From: an uncultured Peptostreptococcaceae bacterium
GTDB taxonomy: Bacteria > Bacillota > Clostridia > Peptostreptococcales > Anaerovoracaceae
Length of the DNA stretch: 64,000 nt
Reading direction: 5' to 3'
NCBI GenBank assembly: GCA_910588185.1
Contig: CAJUQR010000004.1
Location: forward strand, 146,248-210,247
Shown: in pieces, positions 3,339 through 55,007 of the stretch
Numbering within the stretch: the stretch's first letter is position 1
Layout of the letters: each line of letters begins with the position of its first letter
The notes under the pieces: model-generated
Seen by the model: the letters and a program-made list of their open reading frames with translations, nothing else
What the model was told of the DNA's origin: nothing
Databases searched by the model: none
Program-made: the position numbers and the translations under genes

Positions 3339-4217
3339 ATGAACAAAAAAGATTACCTATTGTCTGCATTTAATAATTTAAATACGATATACGAAATTGG
3401 GAAAAAGATTACGCCGATAAGTCAGCCATATACAAAAAAGGCTGGGGCGCTTAGAACGTTGCAATTGGAAAATATGGTCGAGAAAGTTTTATTGCATGAT
3501 AAGTCAATGATTCATTGCTTTCAAATAGTAAATGAAAATTTGAATGAATTAGATACGTCTATTATAGCAAGTGCTGCCAGAAACATTATGGAAATATCCA
3601 ATATATATTTTCATATTAGCGAGAGAAAAATTGGTGAAGACGAAATTCAATTGCGTTATGACACAATGTATTTAAATGCAATGATAAATTTACAGGATAT
3701 ATATAAAAAATTAGATTTTTCAAGCGAATGTTTCCATGCGCGCATAGAGAAGGATAGTTTGATTTCAACAAGAGAAGAAGTAAAGCATAATCATGCATTT
3801 CAGCAAAAAGAAAAAATTGTGCAGGATCAAATTTTATCAGGCAGGAAAATTATCGTTAAAGCAAATCCGCATAATATCCTGGAGAAATCTATGGAGTCAG
3901 CTATTTATAACCTGCTGTCTAACAGTGTACATAGCCTATTTATCGGATTAGGAAGTAATTCTTTAAATAATAATTTTTTTTACAGCAATTTTTTTACTGC
4001 TACTCGTTTACTGACTATATCGTTGCAAGTAGCCGTTATTTATACTGCTTATATTATTAAAGATTATTTAGAATTAAGAAAGCAGCTATATAAGGAACTT
4101 AATGATGAAGAAAAATCTATAATAAAAAATTTAAAATCTGATGTTGATTTAAAACTATTTTTGAATGATTTAAAAAAAGAATTTGAGAATTCTTTTTTTG
4201 ACAATCCTTTAGGATAA
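3339..4217 (+). CDS. Hypothetical 292-aa protein, very AT-rich
   Basis: Long ORF in the same orientation as the HEPN-motif gene. Predicted helical, with no recognisable motif. Confidence 0.55.
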   Translation: MNKKDYLLSAFNNLNTIYEIGKKITPISQPYTKKAGALRTLQLENMVEKVLLHDKSMIHCFQIVNENLNELDTSIIASAARNIMEISNIYFHISERKIGEDEIQLRYDTMYLNAMINLQDIYKKLDFSSECFHARIEKDSLISTREEVKHNHAFQQKEKIVQDQILSGRKIIVKANPHNILEKSMESAIYNLLSNSVHSLFIGLGSNSLNNNFFYSNFFTATRLLTISLQVAVIYTAYIIKDYLELRKQLYKELNDEEKSIIKNLKSDVDLKLFLNDLKKEFENSFFDNPLG

Positions 4218-4238
4218 GTTGGAATTTTGATTTGTCAG

Positions 4239-4278
4239 AAAATAAAAACACGCCATAGGGTGTGTTTTTTCTTTTTAA
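4239..4278 (+). repeat. Direct repeat DR-B containing a terminator hairpin (AACACGCC-atag-GGTGTGTT + T-run)
   Basis: Near-identical to 2655-2693. It also serves as the terminator for the 3339-4217 gene. Confidence 0.7.
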
Positions 4279-4316
4279 GATATAAAAAATCTAAATGATA
4301 AAAGGAGTAAGGAAAA

Positions 4317-5189
4317 ATGAACAATAAACAGGGAAATGTACATATTATCAGCGAAGATATGATTTTTGCTTATGAAAAATGGATGATTGAAGAAGAAAAA
4401 AGTCCAAATACGCAGTATAAATATTTGCAGGATATAAAAACATTTATGTTTTTTCTATCAGGCAGAGATATAGAACAACAAGTTGTTTCTAAAAGGACAG
4501 TTATAGAATACAAAGAATATTTACAAAAAAGATATGTAGTAAGTAGTATAAATTCTATGTTAGTAGCGCTTAATAGTTTTTTGAAATATGTAGGTTGGAA
4601 TGAGTGCTGTGTAAAATTAATTAAATGTCAGCGAAAAATGTTTCGAGAGGAAAGGCGAGAACTGAGCAAAAAAGAGTATCTTCGTTTAGTATCTGTAGCT
4701 AAAAAAAATCATAAAAAACGTTTGAGTTTAGTGATGGAGACCATTTGCTCTACTGGTATAAGAGTATCAGAACTTAAGTATGTAACAGCTGAGGCAGCAA
4801 AACAGGGATGGGCTGAAATTACCTGTAAAGGAAAACAACGCAGTATATTTCTTCCCAAAGATTTATGTCTAAAATTAGTAAGGTATGCAAAACAAAATAA
4901 TATTGCGTCGGGATGTATTTTTCAAACAAAGACAGGACGTCCTTTAGATCGTTCAAATATTTGGCATGATATGAAAGCATTATGCCAGGAAGCAGGTATA
5001 GAAAAAACAAAAGTTTTTCCACATAATCTGAGGCATCTTTTTGCAAAGACATTTTATGAAATAGAAAAAGACATTGTACGTTTATCAGACATTCTTGGGC
5101 ACAGTAATATTAATACCACTCGTATTTATATAATTTTCAGCCAGGCAGAGCATTCACGTAAGATGGATTCTCTTGGTCTGATTATTTGA
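4317..5189 (+). CDS. Small tyrosine site-specific recombinase (XerC/D-like, 290 aa)
   Basis: Catalytic signature TGIRVSEL (Arg), HNLRHLF (HxxR) and LGHSNINTTRIY (His plus Tyr nucleophile). An N-terminal SAM-like domain is present. RBS is AAGGAG. Confidence 0.85.
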   Translation: MNNKQGNVHIISEDMIFAYEKWMIEEEKSPNTQYKYLQDIKTFMFFLSGRDIEQQVVSKRTVIEYKEYLQKRYVVSSINSMLVALNSFLKYVGWNECCVKLIKCQRKMFREERRELSKKEYLRLVSVAKKNHKKRLSLVMETICSTGIRVSELKYVTAEAAKQGWAEITCKGKQRSIFLPKDLCLKLVRYAKQNNIASGCIFQTKTGRPLDRSNIWHDMKALCQEAGIEKTKVFPHNLRHLFAKTFYEIEKDIVRLSDILGHSNINTTRIYIIFSQAEHSRKMDSLGLII

Positions 5190-5197
5190 ATAAAAAA

Positions 5198-5225
5198 TAC
5201 AACATAATCTACATTATGTTGTATT
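5198..5225. repeat. Recombinase-type site L: 12-bp palindromic arms around an asymmetric core (ATACAACATAAT-CTAC-ATTATGTTGTAT)
   Basis: Read directly from the sequence. It starts 9 bp after the recombinase stop. Confidence 0.8.
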
Positions 5226-5255
5226 AATAAAATTATATTTAACAAATCTTGTATA

Positions 5256-5284
5256 TTTTATAATAAAAACAGTGAAAAAATCAA
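5256..5284 (-). promoter_or_regulatory. Sigma-A-like promoter inside the invertible segment, currently facing away from the surface-protein gene
   Basis: TTGATT-N17-TAAAAT on the minus strand. The context is AT-rich, so a chance match is possible. Confidence 0.3.
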
Positions 5285-5336
5285 TATTATTTGTAAAAAA
5301 TTTTTAAAATTTTACATTTTTTTGTACTAAAAATAA

Positions 5337-5372
5337 GCCGACACTACCTGCTTTCCTAGCTCGGCCTTTTTT
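5337..5372 (+). terminator. Terminator-like hairpin inside the invertible segment
   Basis: GCCGA..CTA / TAG.TCGGC stem followed by CTTTTTT. The stem is weak and the loop large. Confidence 0.3.
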
Positions 5373-5446
5373 GCATGTATTTTTTTAAAAAAATTTGTTC
5401 TTTTATAACGATTAGGAAATCAGTTTTAGCATAAAAGAAATTTTCA

Positions 5447-5474
5447 CTACAACATAATGTAGATTATGTTATAT
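5447..5474. repeat. Recombinase-type site R (CTACAACATAAT-GTAG-ATTATGTTATAT)
   Basis: Reverse complement of site L with 2 mismatches. It ends 26 nt before the TTG start of the surface-protein gene. Confidence 0.8.
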
Positions 5475-5500
5475 GTAAAGAAAGAGAGGATGTTATTATT

Positions 5501-7039
5501 TTGAATGTAACAAAAAAATTTAGAGATAATCGATTTATATTTGTTTTTATATGCATTTTAATTTGTATTGGGATGATTCCAACATCGGCGATGGCGTTAA
5601 CAGATGACGATATAGATGAGAGCGCGTCATCTCAGTTTGTAACAGTAGAGCAACTAAAGCTTTTTAACACTAATGATGAAACCGGTCAAAATTCGGCAAA
5701 GGTTTATTTTGGAAACAATAATCAGAAGTGGTGGATTGTAGGAAGTGAGGATGACAATCTTGTTCTGTTTGCAGCAGGTGGAATCTCAAGAGGCACATTT
5801 GCAAGATATAGTCCTAGAAAACAATATGACAGCGCTTGGAATTGTGAGTATGAAACTGTGCCTGTGGATGTTTATGGTAATCATTATGGTGGAAGTATAT
5901 TGAGAAAGACTTTGCAAGAACTGGAAACATCTTATTTTACCGGTGCGGAGCAAAAACTTATGAATGATACGACGGTATATACTCATGATCTAAAAAATAA
6001 TAGCGTTTATTCGACCACAGATAAGTTGTACATTCCTTATGGAAAGATAGCTGAAGGATATGATAATAAGTACGATTATATAACGGTCGGCGCAAACAGT
6101 TCAGAAAATTTAGATGAGGGGCTGCGTATATATAGTGCTTATTGGCAGGCTTTGCAGCCAATGCAGAAATTTTGGCTTCGTGAACCATATGACAACGGTA
6201 GGCAAGCTTATTATGATATATTGGTTGCGTTTAAAAAGGAAAATGATCCTTCAAATACGGACTATATTGCAAGCGACAGTAACATATCTATAAATCCGGC
6301 TTTTGAGCTGAAAACATCTTCTATATCTTTTGCATCCTCTGCACCGGCGGTATCATCAGATGGTAAGCTTGCGATGAATGATGCAATGACATTGCGATAT
6401 ACCGCTGACAATCTTGGTTTTGCGGAGGTGTCGCCTGACAAAACAAAGGTTTATTTGAAAAATGTTCCTAAAGGAACCTATTTGGTCGTACAAAACGGTG
6501 AAGGCGCATGGGCAAAAGTAATTACGAACGAAATTTCTGTTTCCGCTGGTGATATGGGAATAGATACTTTTGACAAATGTGAGGTATGGCTGGAAACAAC
6601 TGATGACGCTGAAAGAATGACATATGCGGCAATGGCAACATATAAAGATGAATATATCGTTTCATATGTATTTAAAAATAAATCTGATGAAACGATGTTG
6701 CCGAAGGAAGTAAATAAGCTGCTTCCGGATGAAAAGAGATATAAACCTGGTACAAATGTGAAAGCAGAGATGTTGGCTGTCACAGAAGTAAAAGTAAGTA
6801 ATGGAGTATGGAAGTTTTTAGGGTGGAATAAGGAAAGCGTAGATAATATAGCAGAGGATATAGCTTTTACAGGCGAATGGGAATTTAACCCTGATACAGA
6901 ACCAGGCCGTGATACATCTGTGAATGTTGCTGAAAATGATATACCAAAAACAGGTGATCAAACAAATATCGGTATTTACTTGTTGATAATAATGTTAAGC
7001 GGATTTTTTTCAGCACTTGGTGTGGCAATAAAAAAATAA
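5501..7039 (+). CDS. Sortase-anchored cell-surface protein (DUF6273-like N-terminal region, SHIRT-like C-terminal repeat, IPKTG sorting signal)
   Basis: TTG start lies 10 nt after AGAGAGGA. A signal peptide is present. The C-terminus is IPKTGD, then a hydrophobic stretch, then KK. The SHIRT-type pattern reads LPKEVNKLLP...GVWKFLGW...FTGEWEF. Confidence 0.8.
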   Translation: MNVTKKFRDNRFIFVFICILICIGMIPTSAMALTDDDIDESASSQFVTVEQLKLFNTNDETGQNSAKVYFGNNNQKWWIVGSEDDNLVLFAAGGISRGTFARYSPRKQYDSAWNCEYETVPVDVYGNHYGGSILRKTLQELETSYFTGAEQKLMNDTTVYTHDLKNNSVYSTTDKLYIPYGKIAEGYDNKYDYITVGANSSENLDEGLRIYSAYWQALQPMQKFWLREPYDNGRQAYYDILVAFKKENDPSNTDYIASDSNISINPAFELKTSSISFASSAPAVSSDGKLAMNDAMTLRYTADNLGFAEVSPDKTKVYLKNVPKGTYLVVQNGEGAWAKVITNEISVSAGDMGIDTFDKCEVWLETTDDAERMTYAAMATYKDEYIVSYVFKNKSDETMLPKEVNKLLPDEKRYKPGTNVKAEMLAVTEVKVSNGVWKFLGWNKESVDNIAEDIAFTGEWEFNPDTEPGRDTSVNVAENDIPKTGDQTNIGIYLLIIMLSGFFSALGVAIKK

Positions 7040-7189
7040 ATTATTGGAAATAAAGATGAAACTCTATTTCCTGTGTTGACAAAAATATTGATTTCATATG
7101 TTTTTTTACAACATTTTGATAGTTTTGTTGACTTTTTGACATTGTTTTTCTCATCTTCGTCAATTTATATGATTGATGTAATAAATTTT

Positions 7190-7295
7190 GGTACAATCTT
7201 GCCTCTTTTGTTGTAAAAATCGTCAGAAATTTAAGATTTTGGCAACATAGCTATTTTGATACAGCAGAAAGAGGTGATTGTACCATATTTTTTTA
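7190..7295 (+). terminator. Long-range inverted repeat with T-tail (possible terminator or structured element)
   Basis: GGTACAATC-ttg-CCTCTTT (7190-7208) pairs with AAAGAGG-t-GATTGTACC (7268-7284). The loop is about 59 nt and is followed by ATATTTTTTTA. Confidence 0.3.
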
Positions 7296-7333
7296 CTTTT
7301 AAAGTATAGACTAAACCGTAGTGCTTTCTTATA

Positions 7334-9325
7334 CTATAACCCCAGTTCCCTAAACTTGGTGGTAGGAGCGTGGCAAGCTCCGTTTTCACATATATACCAG
7401 AGAGTAATATCGTTTATAGGATAGGATGAGGTGAAAGGTGCAATTTGTGACAGTGCTTTCTGATTTTGACCAGACTTATGAATTGCGCTTAGGTTTTGCG
7501 CAGGATGCTGGCTGAGATAAGTCAGTATTTCAGCAGGAAGCTCTTCACCGGTAAAGATTAGTTCTTTGTGCGGAAAGATTGATATCATCATTGCCGATAG
7601 ACCAAAACAATGAGCAGGAGGATATTCAGCTGCTTGACCTGCAATAAAATTATTCTGTCTGTTTGATGCTTCACGAAACGAAGATTCTCCTGTAAGCGCT
7701 GCAAGTTTAGCAAGAACCATGGCTGCTGCTGAGTTTCCTGATGGAATAGCGCCGTCATAAGTATCTTTAGGACGGTGAATTAAGCTTTCCGCATCGTGAG
7801 CAGTAAGGTAATAGCCGCCGTTTTCTTTATCTTCAAACAAGTCAATCATCTGTTTTGTTCTTGATACCGCTTCTTCAAGATAATCAATTTTAAATGTAAC
7901 GTTATATAGTTCCAGCAGAGATAGTGCATAAACTGCGTAGTCGTCAAGCTGACCGGCGTTTGCAGCTTCACCGCCGCAATAACGAAGAAAGAGTCGATTA
8001 TTGCTGCCTGTCATCTTTTCATTGATAAAATTTTGTGCTTTAATAGCGGCTTTGATATATATATCATCTTTGAGTATTAGACCTGCTCTTGCCATTGCCA
8101 TTATAGTCCATGAGTTCCATGATAGTAAAATCTTGTTATCAAGATGGAGGTTGGTTCTTGATTTTCTGTATTCAAAAAGGCTCTTTAGGCGAGGGTCATA
8201 ATGGTGCTGTTCTTTGTCTGTAAGACCTATGCGGTTTGGAATATTTTTCCCTTCGAAGTTTCCTCTTTCTGTAATGTTATATTCATTGCAAAATTCTTTG
8301 CCGTCTTTTTCTCCTAGAACCTTGATTATTTCTTCCATAGTAAATACATAGTATTTGCCTTCTATACCATCGCTGTCGGCGTCCTGTCCGCAGTAAAATC
8401 CGCCGTCAGAGCTTGTTAGTTCTTTTAGAATATAGTCGGCAGTTTGTCTTGCAACAGAAGCGTAAAAAGGGTTTTTTGTGATTTGAAAAGCTTCAAGATA
8501 TGCCAGTAAGAGAAGAGCGTTATCATAAAGCATTTTTTCAAAATGAGGAACAAGCCATTTTTCATCTGTTGAATACCTGGAAAAACCTCCGCCGATATGG
8601 TCAAATATGCCGCCTCTTGCCATGGATTTCAAAGTAGTTTCAACCATGTTCAGTGCGTCAGCGTTTTGTTCATATTCGTAAAGATGCATTAGAAAAAGTA
8701 GATTATGAGGTGCAGGGAATTTGGGCGCAGAGCCGAATCCTCCCCATTTGCTGTCAAAGGATTTTAGGAGAAGTTCATATGCCTTGTGTATGAAAGATTT
8801 GTCTGCTTGACCAAGGCCGTTTTTGCTGTATTGTTTTAGCGCTGACGTAATCTTTTCGCCGGAACTGATAAGTTTTTCGCGTTCTGTATGCCAAAGATAT
8901 GAAATTTGATTGAGCAAGTCTTTAAGACCGATGTGACCATACTGACTTTCTTTCGGGAAATAAGTTCCTGCAAAAAATGGCTTTTGTTCCGGCGTCATGA
9001 ATATGGTAAGAGGCCAGCCGCCTGATCCTGTCATAGCTTGGCAGACTGACATGTAAACTGAGTCAATATCAGGTCTTTCTTCACGGTCTACTTTTATACA
9101 TACATAATCATCTAAAAGCCTTGCAATCTGAGTATCTTCAAAGGATTCGTGGGCCATCACATGGCACCAGTGGCAAGTGGAGTATCCGATACTTAAAAAG
9201 ATAGGCTTGTCTTCTTCTTTTGCCTTTTGAAATGCTTCCTCGCCCCATGGATACCAATCTACAGGATTGTCCTTATGCTGTGAGAGATAAGGAGATTTTT
9301 CATATTTAAGTTTGTTTGACATCAA
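7334..9325 (-). CDS. Thioredoxin-domain protein, YyaL/DUF255 family (N-acylglucosamine-2-epimerase-like fold)
   Basis: N-terminus reads [38 protein letters not shown], followed by a long alpha/alpha-barrel-like region. Confidence 0.85.
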
Positions 9326-17889: not shown

Positions 17890-18471
17890 ATGAGTAAAAG
17901 TATTGTATTAAATTGTAGAGTTAAAGGTTACATGGCAACATATGCCTGTATATTAAAAGATATGATTTGCGGCATGATAGAGGCAGAATGCGACGACAGC
18001 ATTTCCGGTAATTTTATTAGGCAGATGATACCTCATCACGTTGCTGCTATAGAAATGTCAGAAAATTTGTTAAAGTACACTGATAATGAAAAGCTGGCCT
18101 GCATTGCTCAGAATATTATAGCTGAAAAGACAGAGAGTATCAGAGATATGCGCAGAGCATTATGTTGCTGCTGCAATTCAATTAATTCTTGCAGAGACTT
18201 ATGTGAGTATAAGTGCAGAATAAATTGCATAATTAAGGAAATGTTCGAAGAAATGAAGTGTGCATACATTGATAACAGCATAGAATGTAATTTTATAAGG
18301 ACAATGATACCTCACCATAAAGGTGCTATAAGGATGGCTAAAACTGCGCTGTGCTATTGCATTTGTGATGAACTTAAGCCTATTTTAGAGTCTATAATAG
18401 ATAGCCAAGAAAAAGGCATTGCAGAAATGGAGTGCATAGCAGAGTGTCTTAATTGCAGATGCATGAGATAG
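17890..18471 (+). CDS. DUF305-family protein, unusually Cys-rich, no signal peptide
   Basis: Two copies of the F-I-R-x-M-I-P-H-H-x-x-A-I-x-M motif. About 22 Cys in 193 aa, including CCCC. RBS is GGGGAGG. Confidence 0.6.
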   Translation: MSKSIVLNCRVKGYMATYACILKDMICGMIEAECDDSISGNFIRQMIPHHVAAIEMSENLLKYTDNEKLACIAQNIIAEKTESIRDMRRALCCCCNSINSCRDLCEYKCRINCIIKEMFEEMKCAYIDNSIECNFIRTMIPHHKGAIRMAKTALCYCICDELKPILESIIDSQEKGIAEMECIAECLNCRCMR

Positions 18472-36426: not shown

Positions 36427-36584
36427 TAGCTGCCTCCTCGTTTTCACTTATATAAAGTATAACATACTTATAATCGTTAAAAAAAGAGTAAAGGTCGTCC
36501 AAAAAGTGAAAAAATTACAATGATACTTTGCTTTTTTTATAAAATATGATAAAATTGACAATAATGTAGCAAGAGGTCAAGCTT

Positions 36585-36800
36585 ATGAAGCAGTTTTTAG
36601 AAGAAAAATTAAACATAGTACATGATGGAGTAGTTCATGTAAACGAGCTTATTGCGATGGCTATAGTAGTGGTCTTACTGCTGCTTATTGTTTTAGCCAT
36701 CCGAGATTCAGTTAAAAAGCGAAAAAATAAAGAGACAACTATATTTAGTCATAGAAAGAACAAGTATAAGAGCAGATTAGGTAAAAAAAATAAATATTAA
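36585..36800 (+). CDS. Possible small membrane protein (71 aa, one TM, basic tail)
   Basis: RBS AGAGG and TM segment AMAIVVVLLLLIVLAI. No homology evidence. Confidence 0.3.
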   Translation: MKQFLEEKLNIVHDGVVHVNELIAMAIVVVLLLLIVLAIRDSVKKRKNKETTIFSHRKNKYKSRLGKKNKY

Positions 36801-37001
36801 AAAGTATAGAGTTTGAGATTAAGACCAAATCCTGTGTTAACAGGGTTTGGTTTTTTAGTAGTCGAAAGTTTGTTTTTAAAGCACTTGATTGAAAAATTTT
36901 TAAAATTTTTTGTAAAAAGTCAACAAAACGTGTTTTTTGATACAATTTTTGTATTATGATAAGCGATATGTTGAAAAAGGTGGAAGATTTCATTATATTT
37001 T

Positions 37002-37027
37002 GTCAACAATATGGAAGATTTGTTGAC
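37002..37027. promoter_or_regulatory. Perfect inverted repeat GTCAACAA-N10-TTGTTGAC (operator-like)
   Basis: Read directly from the sequence. The same 8-mer also occurs at 36919-36926 (minus) and 7125-7132 (plus). Confidence 0.3.
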
Positions 37028-37053
37028 TTTTTTATTGTGTTTAATCATAAAAT

Positions 37054-37086
37054 GTCAAAGAGGCTGCTAACGGCAGCCTCTTTGAC
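37054..37086 (-). terminator. Terminator hairpin, likely for the Cys-rich gene
   Basis: 14-bp stem GTCAAAGAGGCTGC/GCAGCCTCTTTGAC, with a T-rich tail on the minus strand. Confidence 0.55.
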
Positions 37087-37094
37087 AAATATGT

Positions 37095-37122
37095 AACCCC
37101 GCGTATGCGGGGTTTGTTTTTA
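37095..37122 (+). terminator. Plus-strand rho-independent terminator abutting the stop codon of the minus-strand gene
   Basis: Stem AACCCCGC/GCGGGGTT followed by TGTTTTTATTT. Confidence 0.55.
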
Positions 37123-37123
37123 T

Positions 37124-38581
37124 TTAAAAACTGTATCCATTGGTGTCGCAACATTGACATGCGATACTAAAGGTATTTGTTTGTCTTGCGTTATTGTTGC
37201 AACCACAGTTGTCGTGACATCCGCAACCGCAGTCGTTATTACGTCCGCATTCGTATCCATCATTGCATCCGCAGTTGTCATTGCAACCGCATCCATCGTT
37301 ACATCCACAGCCACAGTTGTCGTGACATCCGCAACCGCAGTCGTTGTTACGTCCGCAACCACATCCATCGTGACATCCGCAACCGCAGTCGTTATTACGT
37401 CCGCAACCACATCCGTCGTTACATCCGCATCCGCAGTTGTCATTGCATCCGCATCCATCGTTACATCCACAGCCACAGTTGTCGTGACATCCGCAACCGC
37501 AGTCGTTGTTACATCCGCATCCGCAGTTGTCATTGCAACCACATCCACAGTTGTCGTTTCCAGTCATGGTAAGAAGTTCTCCCACTCTGTTTGGCGTATC
37601 ATGACCACAGCAGCAGTTATCTACTTTGCCTAAGCATGGTCTTTCTGCCGGGTTGCAAGCGCTGCACTGACCTACGTCATCACAAGGAAGATTTATTTCC
37701 TTAGCATCAAGGTTAAACAGTGATAATCTTGTTACTCTGAGACGAAGCTGAGGAGTAACTACGAGTGAACCTGTTAGAGTTATTGTGCCGTCGGCGGCCG
37801 CAGTCAAAGTAGGATTTAATATGGAAGCACATGCATCAAAATCAAGAAGGAGAGAAGGCGATACTCCGTTGATTTGACAAGGAATTTCTACTCCGCAAAG
37901 TGCAAATGCGGAAGCTCCTGTAACAGCAAATGGGGTACCATCTACCGTTGAATAGCATAATCTAAATTGACAGGCAGAACCGCCGTCGTAAACTGTACCC
38001 TCTAAAACGATAGTGGCAACCAGACTCCAAGGACCAGCAGCAGAAGCCATAACAAAGTTACCCGGACAGTTATTTAAACATGATGAAGAACAAGCACACT
38101 TTGTTATTTCAGGCATTATACCGCTGATGTCTCCTACATATTGACCACCTGATGCAGTAATTCCTGTGATTGCAGTTCCATCCACAGTTACGGCAAGATC
38201 AGCCGGAAGGGTAGGTTCTGTCAGATCAAAGGAGTGAGTTACAACATAAGCATTAGTTACATCAAATGTCGTAGCTGCAGTAACGGTAATGTTGCAGCAG
38301 TCATTACAGCAACAGCAGCAGTTACAACCGCAGCCGCAGTTATTATTGCAGCCACAATTATTGTTACAACCGCAGCCACAGTTGTCATGACAACCGCAGC
38401 CACAGTTATTATTACATACACTGCCTCCTATACTGAGCTGTTGAGTAAATGTAGCTGGTGTAGTAGTCAGTGCAGTCATTATAGGTGAGGCGTTTTCCTG
38501 TCCATCATAAAATACTTTATTAAGATAAACGAGGTTGCCTCTTTGATTTGCACATGAACAATTATTTTGTAAACAATTCAT
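37124..38581 (-). CDS. Hyper-cysteine repeat protein of unknown family (485 aa, about 17% Cys)
   Basis: Longest ORF of the region. ATG 38581 lies 8 nt after GAGAGGA. A non-repetitive core is flanked by CGCGC-[NH][ND][NDG] arrays. Confidence 0.75.
   Translation of the reverse strand: MNCLQNNCSCANQRGNLVYLNKVFYDGQENASPIMTALTTTPATFTQQLSIGGSVCNNNCGCGCHDNCGCGCNNNCGCNNNCGCGCNCCCCCNDCCNITVTAATTFDVTNAYVVTHSFDLTEPTLPADLAVTVDGTAITGITASGGQYVGDISGIMPEITKCACSSSCLNNCPGNFVMASAAGPWSLVATIVLEGTVYDGGSACQFRLCYSTVDGTPFAVTGASAFALCGVEIPCQINGVSPSLLLDFDACASILNPTLTAAADGTITLTGSLVVTPQLRLRVTRLSLFNLDAKEINLPCDDVGQCSACNPAERPCLGKVDNCCCGHDTPNRVGELLTMTGNDNCGCGCNDNCGCGCNNDCGCGCHDNCGCGCNDGCGCNDNCGCGCNDGCGCGRNNDCGCGCHDGCGCGRNNDCGCGCHDNCGCGCNDGCGCNDNCGCNDGYECGRNNDCGCGCHDNCGCNNNARQTNTFSIACQCCDTNGYSF
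37190..37558 (-). repeat. Degenerate 24-bp (8-codon) tandem repeats encoding the C-terminal CGCGC-xxx array
   Basis: About 16 units. The higher-order unit starting RNNDCGCGCHD occurs three times. Confidence 0.85.
38294..38416 (-). repeat. Tandem repeats encoding the N-terminal CGCGC-xxx array and a CCCCC run
   Basis: CNNNCGCGCHDNCGCGCNNNCGCNNNCGCGCNCCCCCNDCC. Confidence 0.85.
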
Positions 38582-38620
38582 TTTTAACAATCCTCTCTTT
38601 ATAAATAAACTGAGATGATA

Positions 38621-38648
38621 TAGTATATGCTTTCCTTAAATTGGTGGT
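38621..38648 (-). promoter_or_regulatory. Sigma-K-type promoter match upstream of the Cys-rich gene
   Basis: AC-N17-CATAtacTA on the minus strand, about 45 nt upstream of the ATG. The motif is short, so chance cannot be excluded. Confidence 0.3.
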
Positions 38649-38677
38649 GAAAAAATATCAAAAATAGATAAAAACTA

Positions 38678-38706
38678 TTGCTAAGTGTAATAAAGTGGTG
38701 TATAGT
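38678..38706 (+). promoter_or_regulatory. Candidate sigma-A promoter of the dcw operon (Pmra)
   Basis: TTGCTA-N17-TATAGT, about 60 nt upstream of the mraZ ATG. Confidence 0.5.
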
Positions 38707-38709
38707 GGT
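38685..38709 (+). promoter_or_regulatory. Three direct GTG[GT][TA] pentamers at 10-bp period (MraZ-box-like operator)
   Basis: GTGTA 38685, GTGGT 38695 and GTGGT 38705 overlap the promoter spacer and -10. The layout matches the known MraZ operator of three repeats with 5-nt spacers. Confidence 0.45.
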
Positions 38710-38765
38710 AGATAATAAAAATAATTATTGTGGAGACGTGTCTAAAGGAAGGAGGAACATCCAAA

Positions 38766-52992: not shown

Positions 52993-54162
52993 ATGCTGCA
53001 AATTGAGACAGATATGGAAAAAGCTGCGGTTATTAAAGTCATAGGTGTTGGCGGTGGTGGCTGCAATGCGGTTAACCGCATGGTTGAAGCCGGACTTAAG
53101 GGCGTTGACTTTATAGCAGTTAATACAGATAGACAAGCTTTAAGCAGATGCTTGGCAGAAACAAAGATTCAGATAGGTGAAAAGCTTACAAGAGGTTTAG
53201 GGGCAGGAGCTAACCCTGAAGTGGGTCAAAAAGCTGCTGAAGAAACATTGGACGATATCACCGCTCTTATGGACGGTGCTGATATGATATTTATTACTGC
53301 AGGAATGGGAGGAGGCACTGGAACAGGTGCAGCGCCTATAATTGCCAAGGCAGCCAGAGACATGGGGATTCTGACTGTAGGAGTTGTTACTAAGCCGTTT
53401 TCTTTTGAAGGGGCTAAGAGAAAGAAACAGGCTGAACTGGGAATAGGATTTCTCAAGAGATATGTGGATTCTCTTGTAATAGTTCCTAATGACAAGTTAC
53501 TTACAAATTGTGAAAGGAATACATCAATGCTGGATGCTTTCCGTATGGCGGATGATGTTTTGAGACAAGGTGTTCAGGGTATATCAGATCTTATTTCTGA
53601 TTTTGCACTTATCAACGTTGACTTTGCTGATGTTAAGTCAGTTATGACTGATAGAGGTGTGGCACATATGGGTACAGGCTATGGCACAGGAGAGAAACGT
53701 GCTCAGGATGCTGTAAAGGCGGCTATGGAAAGTCCGCTTTTAGAAACAAGCATTGCAGGCGCCAAGGCTATACTTCTTTATGTTTCCGGCGGATATGACC
53801 TTGGTATGCTTGAAGTCAGCGAGATAGCAGGAATGGTTGAGGAACAGGCGGATAGAGATTGTATTTTGATATTTGGTGCAGCAGTTAACGAAGACATGGA
53901 AGATGAAATAGCAATTACCGTAATTGCAACAGGATTTGATGAAGGTCTTGAAACAGCTGCGCAGTCAAAGGAAAACATGCAAGGCTTATCAGGAACAGCA
54001 GAAAGACAGGAAAATGCACCGGCAAATATTCAAAATGACGACGAGCTGGTTTTTGGAAGAGTTGAGGGATTAAGCGGTACAGAGCGTACCTTACAAGACA
54101 TTCTTAGCAATGAACAAGAAGGTACTACAAAGTTCGAGATTCCGGATTTTCTTAAACAATAA
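52993..54162 (+). CDS. ftsZ: Cell division GTPase FtsZ
   Basis: [23 protein letters not shown] tubulin signature, and a C-terminal peptide IPDFLK. Confidence 0.95.
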
Positions 54163-54167
54163 TATTT

Positions 54168-54190
54168 GAGCCGGTTTAAAACCGGCTCTT
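54168..54190 (+). terminator. Terminator hairpin after ftsZ
   Basis: GAGCCGGT/ACCGGCTC stem with a short T-tail. Confidence 0.5.
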
Positions 54191-54224
54191 GTGATAAATA
54201 ATAAGTTGATATTTTATATTGGTT

Positions 54225-55007
54225 ATGAGAGAGATTACTTCAAAAAATAATCAGATTTATAGGCTTTTTCAAAAGCTTACTGTTAAAAAATATAGAGATA
54301 GGTTTGGACTTTATCTGATTGAAGGAGAGAATCTGATCGAGGAAGCATTAAAAAACAAAATTGATGTTGAGCATATATTGGTCAGGTCGGGAGAAGAACA
54401 AATAATTCAGCCTTATATGAATTTGGATAAAGTCTTTATCACAGACAAAAAACTGTTTGCTGATATTGCGCAGACAAAGACGAGTCAAGGAATTGTTGCA
54501 TCAGTGAGAAAACCGGAGCTTTCCCTGGAGGATTTTCTTAAACGTAAATCATCGGGGAATTTTGTCGTTTTAGATAGACTGCAGGATCCGGGTAATATAG
54601 GGACGATAATAAGGACTGCTGATGCTGCCGGATATAGTCTTGTTATAGCTATGAAAGGGACCGGCGATGTATTTTCTCCTAAGGTGGCAAGAGCGGCGGC
54701 AGGTTCGCTTTTTAGAATGCCGATAGTGACGGCAGATTCACCAAAAGAGCTGGCTAGGCTTGTAAAAGATGCAGGTAAAAAACTGGCAGCTTCGTGCCTT
54801 GATGGGAATACATTTTATTATGAAGAAGATTTAAAAAGCAATATCGCGTTAATCGTTGGCAATGAGGGCAACGGCATATGTGATGAGCTTATAAGCGCAG
54901 CGGATTTAAAGATTAAGATTCCAATGTGCGGTAATATAGAATCGCTAAATGCATCTGTAGCGGCAGCTATAATTATGTACGAAGCAGTGAGAAAAGATAA
55001 AGATTGA
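54225..55007 (+). CDS. TrmH/SpoU-family RNA 2'-O-methyltransferase
   Basis: Motifs LDRLQDPGNIGTIIRTA, VGNEGNGI and IPMCGNIESLNASVAAAI. Start taken at ATG 54225. Confidence 0.8.
   Translation: MREITSKNNQIYRLFQKLTVKKYRDRFGLYLIEGENLIEEALKNKIDVEHILVRSGEEQIIQPYMNLDKVFITDKKLFADIAQTKTSQGIVASVRKPELSLEDFLKRKSSGNFVVLDRLQDPGNIGTIIRTADAAGYSLVIAMKGTGDVFSPKVARAAAGSLFRMPIVTADSPKELARLVKDAGKKLAASCLDGNTFYYEEDLKSNIALIVGNEGNGICDELISAADLKIKIPMCGNIESLNASVAAAIIMYEAVRKDKD

Follow-up and report, generated by a model that had tools for sequence, protein, structure and literature searches.

A 64,000-nucleotide stretch of DNA (contig CAJUQR010000004.1, positions 146,248 to 210,247; hereafter the window) from an uncultured bacterium of the Anaerovoracaceae carries a gene for a 485-residue protein of exceptionally high cysteine content. 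We put the likelihood at roughly 60% that this protein is a late mother-cell, cysteine-rich structural component of the spore coat or exosporium in this lineage. This reading draws on a conserved sigma-K-type promoter, on a protein with no export signal, a predicted beta core and disordered, cysteine-dense arms, and on fixed cysteine-bearing termini, distant relatives in gene clusters of the spore-surface type, and a lineage that forms spores. A preliminary description of this DNA, made from the letters alone, had weighed a role at the spore surface against one in metal binding. The promoter and the class features of cysteine-rich spore-envelope proteins favor the former.

Many strictly anaerobic gut bacteria rely on spores to withstand oxygen and to reach new hosts, and the outer layers of spores have been described in molecular terms in no more than a few model species of Bacillus and Clostridium. 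Cysteine-rich proteins that self-assemble into spore envelopes are already known. What is new here is the sequence family, which is unannotated in every database searched yet common in gut metagenomes, and the unusual length and regularity of its cysteine arrays.

The minus-strand open reading frame (ORF) and its good ribosome-binding site (RBS) were recovered as first described (Table 1), and the RBS is kept at related loci as AGAGAGGA or AAGAGG. An initial hand count of about 81 cysteines, or roughly 17% of residues, was accurate: there are exactly 81 (16.7%), compared with a mean of 1.8% for 50 other ORFs in the window. Most reside in two arrays of CGCGC-xxx units, in which the cysteines follow C-x-C spacing and aromatic residues are absent. 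An exact match to CGCG[CR][NHR][ND][NDG] is seen in thirteen units, and the remaining ones are six-residue CGCNxx versions. Tandem Repeats Finder (TRF) bears out the proposal that the arrays are encoded by degenerate tandem repeats of 24 base pairs. In the second array, which we now place at residues 345-464, it reports 11.2 copies of the 24-base-pair period with 71% matches, additional periods of 48 and 72, and a 162-base-pair higher-order repeat at 37212-37519 (1.9 copies, 90%). The NCCCCCNDCC end of the first array and the three occurrences of RNNDCGCGCHD were likewise found again. Residues 97-344, between the arrays, hold 16 cysteines, as had been stated for the core, and the claim that the protein has neither a signal peptide nor a transmembrane (TM) segment also holds (the maximum Kyte-Doolittle value of any 19-residue window is 1.47).

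Repeats of this type also give rise to long ORFs in four frames, and the shadow ORFs pointed out earlier were reproduced (142, 159, 131 and 84 residues, overlapping the arrays in other frames). One might therefore suppose that the cysteine-rich ORF is not a gene at all and is simply a by-product of non-coding tandem-repeat DNA. We consider the likelihood of this vanishingly small, because only this frame joins the conserved N-terminal, core and C-terminal segments. In addition, the RBS, promoter and terminators are conserved and the core has a confident predicted fold. Frameshifts or stops in orthologs had been named in advance as a sign that the tract evolves as non-coding repeat DNA. However, the ORF is intact in all 26 related genomic loci that we collected, each recovered by the pattern CDDxGQC (24 complete, with two running off a contig end), so the tract is not evolving in this way. 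Finally, the entropies across codon positions 1, 2 and 3 within the window's CGCGC units are 0.12, 0.00 and 0.89. Variation is thus almost confined to third positions, which indicates selection on the peptide rather than on the DNA repeat. Taken together, these data effectively exclude the non-coding explanation.

The protein had been called an orphan, and this label is wrong. A search with the core alone finds 56 homologs of 300-415 residues (E values down to 1e-126; 38-81% identity), all of which are unnamed or "hypothetical" and none of which has a Pfam domain. When 1.84 billion cluster representatives were searched exhaustively with a HMMER profile, 107 proteins matched at E<=1e-3, a number so low that the family must be small and confined. 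(Two weak matches from this search, P0154 and P0156, are repetitive, unrelated proteins and were rejected.) The accompanying claim that no family can be recognized did hold, as Pfam and NCBIfam scans of the 485-residue protein return zero families even at E<=10, and those of its relatives are also empty. The homologs stem mostly from uncultured Anaerovoracaceae of the gut; where a source is named, it is an uncultured gut member of the Clostridia, given as Anaerovoracaceae bacterium, Candidatus Fimisoma, Firmicutes bacterium CAG:145 or CAG:238. Among the matches inspected there is no Clostridioides difficile protein, and the source names are all "hypothetical protein" from uncultured metagenome-assembled genomes (MAGs). 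Certain species-level variants turn up very frequently in metagenomes, one of them on 620 contigs, and the exact protein of the window is not in the public collection searched.

All of these homologs share a common architecture, consisting of a conserved N-terminus (MNCxxNNC..NLVYLxKVFYD..SPI..FTQQLSIG), a variable cysteine-rich insert, the core, the CDDxGQC junction, a second variable cysteine-rich stretch and the tail. In the family alignment (A1), C300 and D301 of the junction are invariant and D302, G304, Q305 and C306 are nearly so, as are C475, Q476, C478 and N481 in the tail. Nearly all complete orthologs retain the tail motif ACQCC(D/E)TNG(Y/F)xF even though it lies downstream of the variable array, which implies that selection maintains the reading frame across the array. 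The arrays themselves differ from one species to the next, not only in length but also in the repeated unit, and are much shorter in most homologs. Cysteine content is 8-14% in the 26 loci and 8-17% across the family, whose most cysteine-rich and most regular member seen is the window protein. One ortholog (L026, 6001-7482; 493 residues, 71 cysteines) uses the unit C(G/D)C(Q/R)(S/T)(A/S)C(D/N)P. Judged by this difference in unit, its C-terminal array expanded independently, which shows convergent expansion of cysteine-periodic repeats within the family. We found no strain-level variation in repeat number, since lengths are constant within species-level clusters (384, 383, 372 and 444 residues), and an apparent length variant of 398 versus 432 residues is merely a different start call. 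On sequence grounds, then, this is a real gene under purifying selection and the representative of a previously undescribed family.

The promoter region provides a link to late sporulation. The sigma-K-type match AC-N17-CATAtacTA noticed earlier is present as described, and its -10 element ends 39 nucleotides before the ATG. When the window is counted with the 26 related loci, 26 of the 27 upstream regions contain cAC-N17-CATAT(A/T), whereas after shuffling of these regions the pattern is found at 2.8 loci on average and at 8 at most. The distance to the start codon is 30-50 nucleotides in most loci and about 190 in two. At the 27th locus (L011) the site takes the form AC-N17-CATAGTATA, a CATAG variant located further upstream, which its relative L010 has as well. 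At least four unrelated sequences fill the 17-nucleotide spacer (e.g., CACCAAAATAAGGAAAG, GAAAGGTTTGTACGAAG, GCTTGCCCTTTGCTTGG and CCCACTGGATGTCCGAAG), and the flanks have also fully diverged. That the boxes and their spacing stay constant despite this divergence marks the site as a phylogenetic footprint.

Saujet et al. found that sigma-E and sigma-K promoters in C. difficile share a CATA-type -10 element (CATATTAT, CATATAAT), and sigma-K elements there consist of a -35 AC and a CATATAAT-like -10 (PMC3789822). The site in the window has the features of sigma-K regulon promoters, namely the -35 AC, a spacer of 16-17 nucleotides, a CATA-type -10 and a suitable distance from the start codon. By this C. 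difficile consensus it reads as a sigma-K (late mother-cell) promoter, from which sigma-K dependence of the gene would follow. As a separate observation, strict AC-N17-CATAnnnTA matches number seven in the window compared with 2.6 expected. One of these (36540-36567, minus strand), about 90 nucleotides upstream of an ATP-binding cassette (ABC) ATPase gene, may be a chance occurrence.

The predicted structure is also of interest. AlphaFold2, when supplied with a 47-sequence family alignment, predicts an all-beta fold in which the predicted local distance difference test score (pLDDT) exceeds 90 for 194 residues. Three N-terminal strands (17-30, 34-39 and 45-54) are predicted to pack on the core, with pLDDT values of 96-98 for residues 20-50, and the core contributes ten strands within residues 105-290, of which several span 15-24 residues. 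Residues 60-93 and 339-485 have pLDDT values below 50, and both arrays are therefore predicted to be disordered. Foldseek comparisons with the PDB and BFVD gave only noise (template modeling score <=0.17 overall and <=0.16 in the PDB; no PDB match at E<=1e-3), and PDB searches with the protein sequence and with the family profile were empty. An AlphaFold2 model of the clostridial exosporium protein CsxA, used as a positive control, found nothing in the PDB either, which implies that this library holds no template of this fold. The core is thus a confidently predicted beta fold that lacks a solved relative, and it is possibly new.

Relatives outside the main family provide a further connection to spore surfaces. 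Clostridium sp. proteins of about 290-370 residues (subgroup A2) have a cysteine-rich N-terminal region followed by the same core, and match the main family with an hhalign probability of 99.9. Their gene clusters (L027 1796-7987; L029 3033-19108; L031 2783-11176) contain a recurrent module in which a DUF11 protein of about 1305 residues is followed by SPOCS-like proteins of 157 and 162 residues, whose similarity to SPOCS (PF12673) is weak. The clusters also encode a 400-residue DUF11+SPOCS protein, a ParA-like ATPase, a CLB_0814-family protein, a glycosyltransferase and nonulosonic-acid-type enzymes. Sleutel et al. described a clostridial F-ENA-3/F-Anchor-3/CsxA appendage-exosporium system, in which, as they propose, a DUF11-rich anchor that bears a CsxA-like domain becomes embedded in the exosporium lattice formed by CsxA (PMC12357932). 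By analogy with that system, the A2 clusters resemble uncharacterized spore-appendage or exosporium islands. The same study imaged spores from an uncultivated member of the Anaerovoracaceae (PMC12357932), and so the lineage can sporulate; a search for literature on sporulation in Fimisoma found none. Another Anaerovoracaceae MAG (L033, 6001-6846) encodes a bona fide CsxA homolog (PF27077) beside a DUF4489 protein, which indicates that members of this family of bacteria can carry a classical exosporium protein.

Given these findings, it is reasonable to propose how such a protein might act. Late in sporulation, sigma-K RNA polymerase would transcribe the monocistronic gene in the mother cell, as the conserved promoter suggests, and the product, having no signal peptide, would remain in the mother-cell cytoplasm. 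A predicted all-beta core of about 240 residues (the N-terminal strands together with residues 97-299) would fold and, by analogy with known spore proteins, oligomerize on the forespore surface. Two disordered arms, a loop (residues 56-96) and a C-terminal extension (residues 345-464), would project from it and, being made up nearly throughout of C-G-C-G-C-(N/H)-(N/D)-(N/D/G) units, present 59 thiols. These arms could knit together neighboring subunits and partner proteins, perhaps through shared metal-thiolate centers while conditions are reducing and through disulfides once they become oxidizing. The conserved termini, MNCxxNNC and ACQCCDTNGYSF, might serve as fixed docking or cross-link points. 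Arrays would then differ in length and unit between species because selection acts on cysteine periodicity and reading frame rather than on the exact array sequence, and the window species would carry an extreme, recently duplicated version. If this shell-protein proposal is correct, the family gives initial access to the spore surface of the Anaerovoracaceae. Late sporulation genes in uncultured Clostridia could then be sought with its sequence marker (CDDxGQC, ACQCCDTNGYSF) and its promoter signature, and its natural series of array lengths, from 8% to 17% cysteine, would serve for relating cross-link density to spore robustness.

Table 1. Features of the cysteine-rich gene, its product and its immediate surroundings (window coordinates)
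Feature	Position	Strand	Details
Cysteine-rich coding sequence, 485 residues	37124..38581	-	ATG at 38581; stop codon 37124-37126
RBS, GAGAGGA	38591..38597	-	9 nucleotides 5' of the ATG; read from the sequence
N-terminal segment, residues 1-55	38417..38581	-	MNCLQNNC..NLVYLNKVFYD..SPI..FTQQLSIG; 3 Cys; conserved in alignment A1
Cysteine array 1, residues 56-96	38294..38416	-	46% Cys; CGCGC-xxx units, ends NCCCCCNDCC; TRF period 24/18
Predicted all-beta core, residues 97-299	37685..38293	-	9 Cys; non-repetitive; conserved
Cysteine-rich junction, residues 300-344	37550..37684	-	CDDxGQCxxCNPxExxC...CCCG (CDDVGQCSACNPAERPC...CCCG); 7 Cys; then a short helix
Cysteine array 2, residues 345-464	37190..37549	-	33% Cys; about 16 CGCGC-xxx or CGC-xxx units; 54-residue higher-order duplication
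C-terminal tail, residues 465-485	37127..37189	-	3 Cys; ends IACQCCDTNGYSF; conserved
Two intrinsic-terminator-like hairpins	37053..37114 (37114-37095, 37087-37053)	-	directly 3' of the stop codon
Sigma-K-type promoter	38621..38648	-	-35 AC 38648-38647; N17; -10 CATATACTA 38629-38621; pattern match
mraZ sigma-A promoter, TTGCTA-N17-TATAGT	38678..38706	+	shares the intergenic region with the cysteine-rich gene
Gene for a 71-residue protein with a single TM segment	36585..36800	+	basic C-terminal tail (IFSHRKNKYKSRLGKKNKY); convergent, immediately downstream

Several observations weigh against a role in the spore envelope. One of these is the genomic setting, which includes no unambiguous sporulation gene among the 47 other ORFs annotated in the window, and no collagen-like, glycosyltransferase or SPOCS gene near the cysteine-rich gene. 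The spoIIGA-sigE-sigG genes that usually follow ftsZ in clostridia are absent from that position (52993-55007), where an RlmB-like methyltransferase gene (rRNA methylation) and then pheS/pheT are found directly after ftsZ. The sporulation sigma genes, if present, must therefore be elsewhere. In favor of sporulation in this lineage, the penicillin-binding protein (PBP) of the division and cell wall (dcw) cluster has SpoVD as its best model, and the shape, elongation, division and sporulation (SEDS) protein has SpoVE, but their scores of 621 and 384 bits fall below the curated cut-offs of 688 and 449, respectively. No Pfam coat or exosporium family matches the protein, and the CotY/CotZ/ExsY models in Pfam and NCBIfam are unmatched at E<=10.

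A relationship to CsxA at the level of sequence is also undetectable. We took CsxA from the supplement of PMC4942563, collected 87 homologs and aligned 31 of them, and the hhalign probabilities against this 31-sequence alignment are 0.04 for A1 and 0.08 for A2. Precomputed annotation assigns PF27077 to 87 of 87 CsxA homologs and to 0 of 56 homologs of the window protein. With neither a profile signal nor PF27077, the family is not CsxA by sequence. AC-N17-CATA upstream of the Anaerovoracaceae-MAG csxA homolog and of the A2 genes gave no clear match, which leaves this control uninformative. Finally, the promoter DNA permits a second reading, as a weak sigma-A promoter (TTCACC-N18-TATACT) with 9 of 12 matches, and a spore-coat role does not explain the strict adjacency of the gene to mraZ and to a gene for a small membrane protein.

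These last two points lead to another possibility, namely that the protein is a vegetative division or envelope factor that shares its regulation with the dcw cluster, being transcribed from a sigma-A promoter within the mraZ intergenic region and possibly controlled by MraZ. This idea is kept alive only by synteny. The gene is divergent from mraZ-rsmH-ftsL-PBP in 24 of the 24 loci that hold this flank, although the cysteine-rich protein drops to 33-38% identity across loci while MraZ keeps 75-91%. Three AGTG(G/T) direct repeats with 10-base-pair spacing (AAGTGTAATAAAGTGGTGTATAGTGGTAG; 38660-38710, plus strand) overlap the mraZ promoter and look like a candidate MraZ operator, and GGTGGTG adjoins the -35 element of the cysteine-gene promoter within a repeat block that is conserved across loci. 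These putative MraZ-box repeats lie in the shared intergenic region, and the sigma-70-like match overlaps the sigma-K-type site. Furthermore, the gene for the 71-residue TM protein is adjacent to and convergent with the cysteine-rich gene in 23 loci, the most distant included (tblastn). Its product matches no known family and may be a functional partner, perhaps one that could tether the cysteine-rich protein to the membrane.

However, a sigma-A reading leaves unexplained the invariant C of CATA and the invariant AC. These residues, with the AC at exactly N17, are sigma-K/E determinants, whereas the sigma-A -35 element is poor and variable. A cytoplasmic protein of 8-17% cysteine with disordered cysteine-rich arms has no precedent among division proteins, and the family is limited to one clostridial lineage and a Clostridium subgroup whose clusters resemble spore-surface loci, whereas dcw genes are universal. 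We therefore find a vegetative dcw-linked function improbable.

A metal-related function, the other option raised in the preliminary description, deserves more weight, even if we regard it as unlikely. In this case the protein would resemble a giant metallothionein whose arrays bind Zn, Cu, Cd or Fe-S for storage, detoxification or redox buffering. Such a role could be independent of spores or could be the main role of the protein on the spore, and it overlaps with the spore-envelope reading rather than excluding it. The arrays are 33-46% cysteine with strict C-x-C spacing, and their Asn, Asp and His residues are possible extra ligands. Cysteine periodicity is the conserved array feature, kept even in the L026 repeat, and the core contains a conserved CxCx3Cx3C loop at C162-C172 in alignment A1. 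Cysteines of this kind in the C. difficile protein CdeC are noted to be able to coordinate Zn2+ under reducing conditions (PMC7677010). Since the producers are strict anaerobes, disulfides are not assured, and metal-thiolate bridges are a plausible alternative. On the other hand, Pfam and NCBIfam scans match no metallothionein or metal-binding family, and the arrays are attached to a large conserved protein with a beta fold, are much shorter in most homologs and are not conserved in sequence. No metal-responsive regulator or transporter is consistently linked, as two-component and ABC genes occur only near the closer relatives, and the conserved promoter is of the sporulation type rather than a metal-sensor operator.

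The ABC neighborhood raises one further possibility, which is that the gene encodes a precursor of a ribosomally synthesized and post-translationally modified peptide (RiPP), such as a thiazole-forming molecule like the thiazole/oxazole-modified microcins (TOMMs), or another secreted cysteine-rich peptide. The transporter would then serve in export or immunity. Gly-Cys repeats resemble the substrates of microcin B17-type heterocyclization, and genes for an ABC ATPase, a 979-residue FtsX-type permease and a two-component system are found downstream, both in the window and in closer relatives. We consider this very improbable and effectively excluded, because annotation of the window's ORFs reveals no cyclodehydratase, dehydrogenase, radical-SAM or leader-peptidase gene nearby. 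In addition, the protein has 485 residues with a conserved folded core and termini, and distant loci keep the gene without the ABC neighborhood. Likewise, the terminator-like hairpins separate it from the ABC genes, so that the transcription unit, as read from the sequence, is monocistronic.

Other features of the region can be recorded here. In most related loci a gene for a multi-TM protein of 370-394 residues separates the small TM gene from that of the ABC ATPase (L002 7300-9070; L004 7340-9720). This insert is missing from the window (36447-37124), and L004 adds a small AbrB/SpoVT-like ORF there. A second cysteine-rich protein in the window (17890-18471, plus strand; 193 residues, 11.4% cysteine, with CCCC and CxC motifs) contains two CopM-family metallochaperone domains (NF049983, 102 bits), and is probably a copper- or metal-handling protein unrelated to the 485-residue one. 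A tRNA gene (1599-1683) and a XerD-like tyrosine recombinase gene (4317-5189) lie within 3 kb of one another, and together with several family-less ORFs (3339-9325) may mark an integrated element.

Perhaps the spore-envelope and metal-binding possibilities could be combined in a bolder form. In this scenario, which we regard as quite a long shot, a new-fold family of spore-shell proteins would use its arrays as modules for metal-thiolate or metal-sulfide cross-linking and loading rather than for disulfide formation. The result would be a metal-stitched shell, or one that scavenges oxygen or electrophiles, suited to anaerobic spores. The pairing with the small membrane protein and with mraZ/dcw would then reflect coupling between envelope synthesis and the spore shell.

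The spore-envelope role that we favor is best considered alongside proteins of established location, for which the preliminary description had cited CsxA, CdeC and ExsY/CotY. As functional analogies these remain apt, although, as noted above for CsxA, likeness does not extend to sequence. The metallothioneins, which were the model for the competing idea, resemble the arrays in cysteine content, C-x-C spacing and the lack of aromatic residues. However, they are small, free-standing proteins, whereas the arrays of the window protein are predicted disordered insertions or extensions of a 485-residue beta-core protein, which has no metallothionein family match in Pfam.

CsxA (299 residues, 25 cysteines) forms the exosporium basal layer of Clostridium sporogenes and C. 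botulinum group I, and its family is characterized by strand-swapped trimers and by self-assembly into hexagonal two-dimensional lattices cross-linked by disulfides. According to a recent preprint, structure prediction places CsxA, CsxC and CdeC in the SPOCS/DUF3794 fold, and crystalline self-assembly with cooperative disulfide formation is proposed there as a common principle (10.64898/2026.09.03.749163). The Pfam SPOCS model (PF12673) matches neither the window protein nor 10 distant relatives at E<=10, a test of low power given that CsxA is also unmatched, and hhalign to a Pfam-positive SPOCS protein fails for the A1 and CsxA alignments alike and so has little power as well. Like the window protein, CsxA is cysteine-rich, clostridial, without a signal peptide and predicted to be all-beta with long strands. 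It also has a disordered Cys/Gly/Asn/Asp loop, DCGGGCNCGCTCPDDPNNGDN, that is short and of the same flavor as the window arrays. The distant relatives of the window protein occur in DUF11/SPOCS clusters, as do CsxA-linked appendage genes, and the AlphaFold2 models of both proteins match PDB long-beta-hairpin proteins such as secretins only weakly. In contrast, the window protein is larger, with 13 predicted strands compared with 6-7 long strands in CsxA, and it has long tandem cysteine arrays and a conserved C-terminal tail. In addition, its gene lies beside mraZ whereas csxA is located in a zapA/bclA cluster.

CdeC and CdeM are cysteine-rich exosporium morphogenetic proteins of C. difficile, a species of the same GTDB order as the lineage of the window. 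CdeC itself has 405 residues and 37 cysteines, six NPC and two CCRQGKGK repeats, and redox-sensitive disordered regions, and its self-assembly depends on disulfides (PMC7677010). It is therefore similar in size to the window protein and also has short cysteine-containing tandem repeats, and the L026 homolog even has repeats of the C(D/N)PC type. Unlike CdeC, the window protein lacks the motifs KKNKRR, HHH, NPC (six copies), CCRQGKGK and CNECC (listed in PMC7677010).

The cysteine-rich CotY, CotZ and ExsY proteins of Bacillus are made in the mother cell and assemble into tiled lattices held together by disulfide cross-links (PMC7333573). These proteins belong to an unrelated family from Bacilli, are much smaller and have no tandem cysteine arrays, but they illustrate the functional principle that we envision. 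CsxA, CdeC and CotY might thus be viewed as functional analogs of the window protein.

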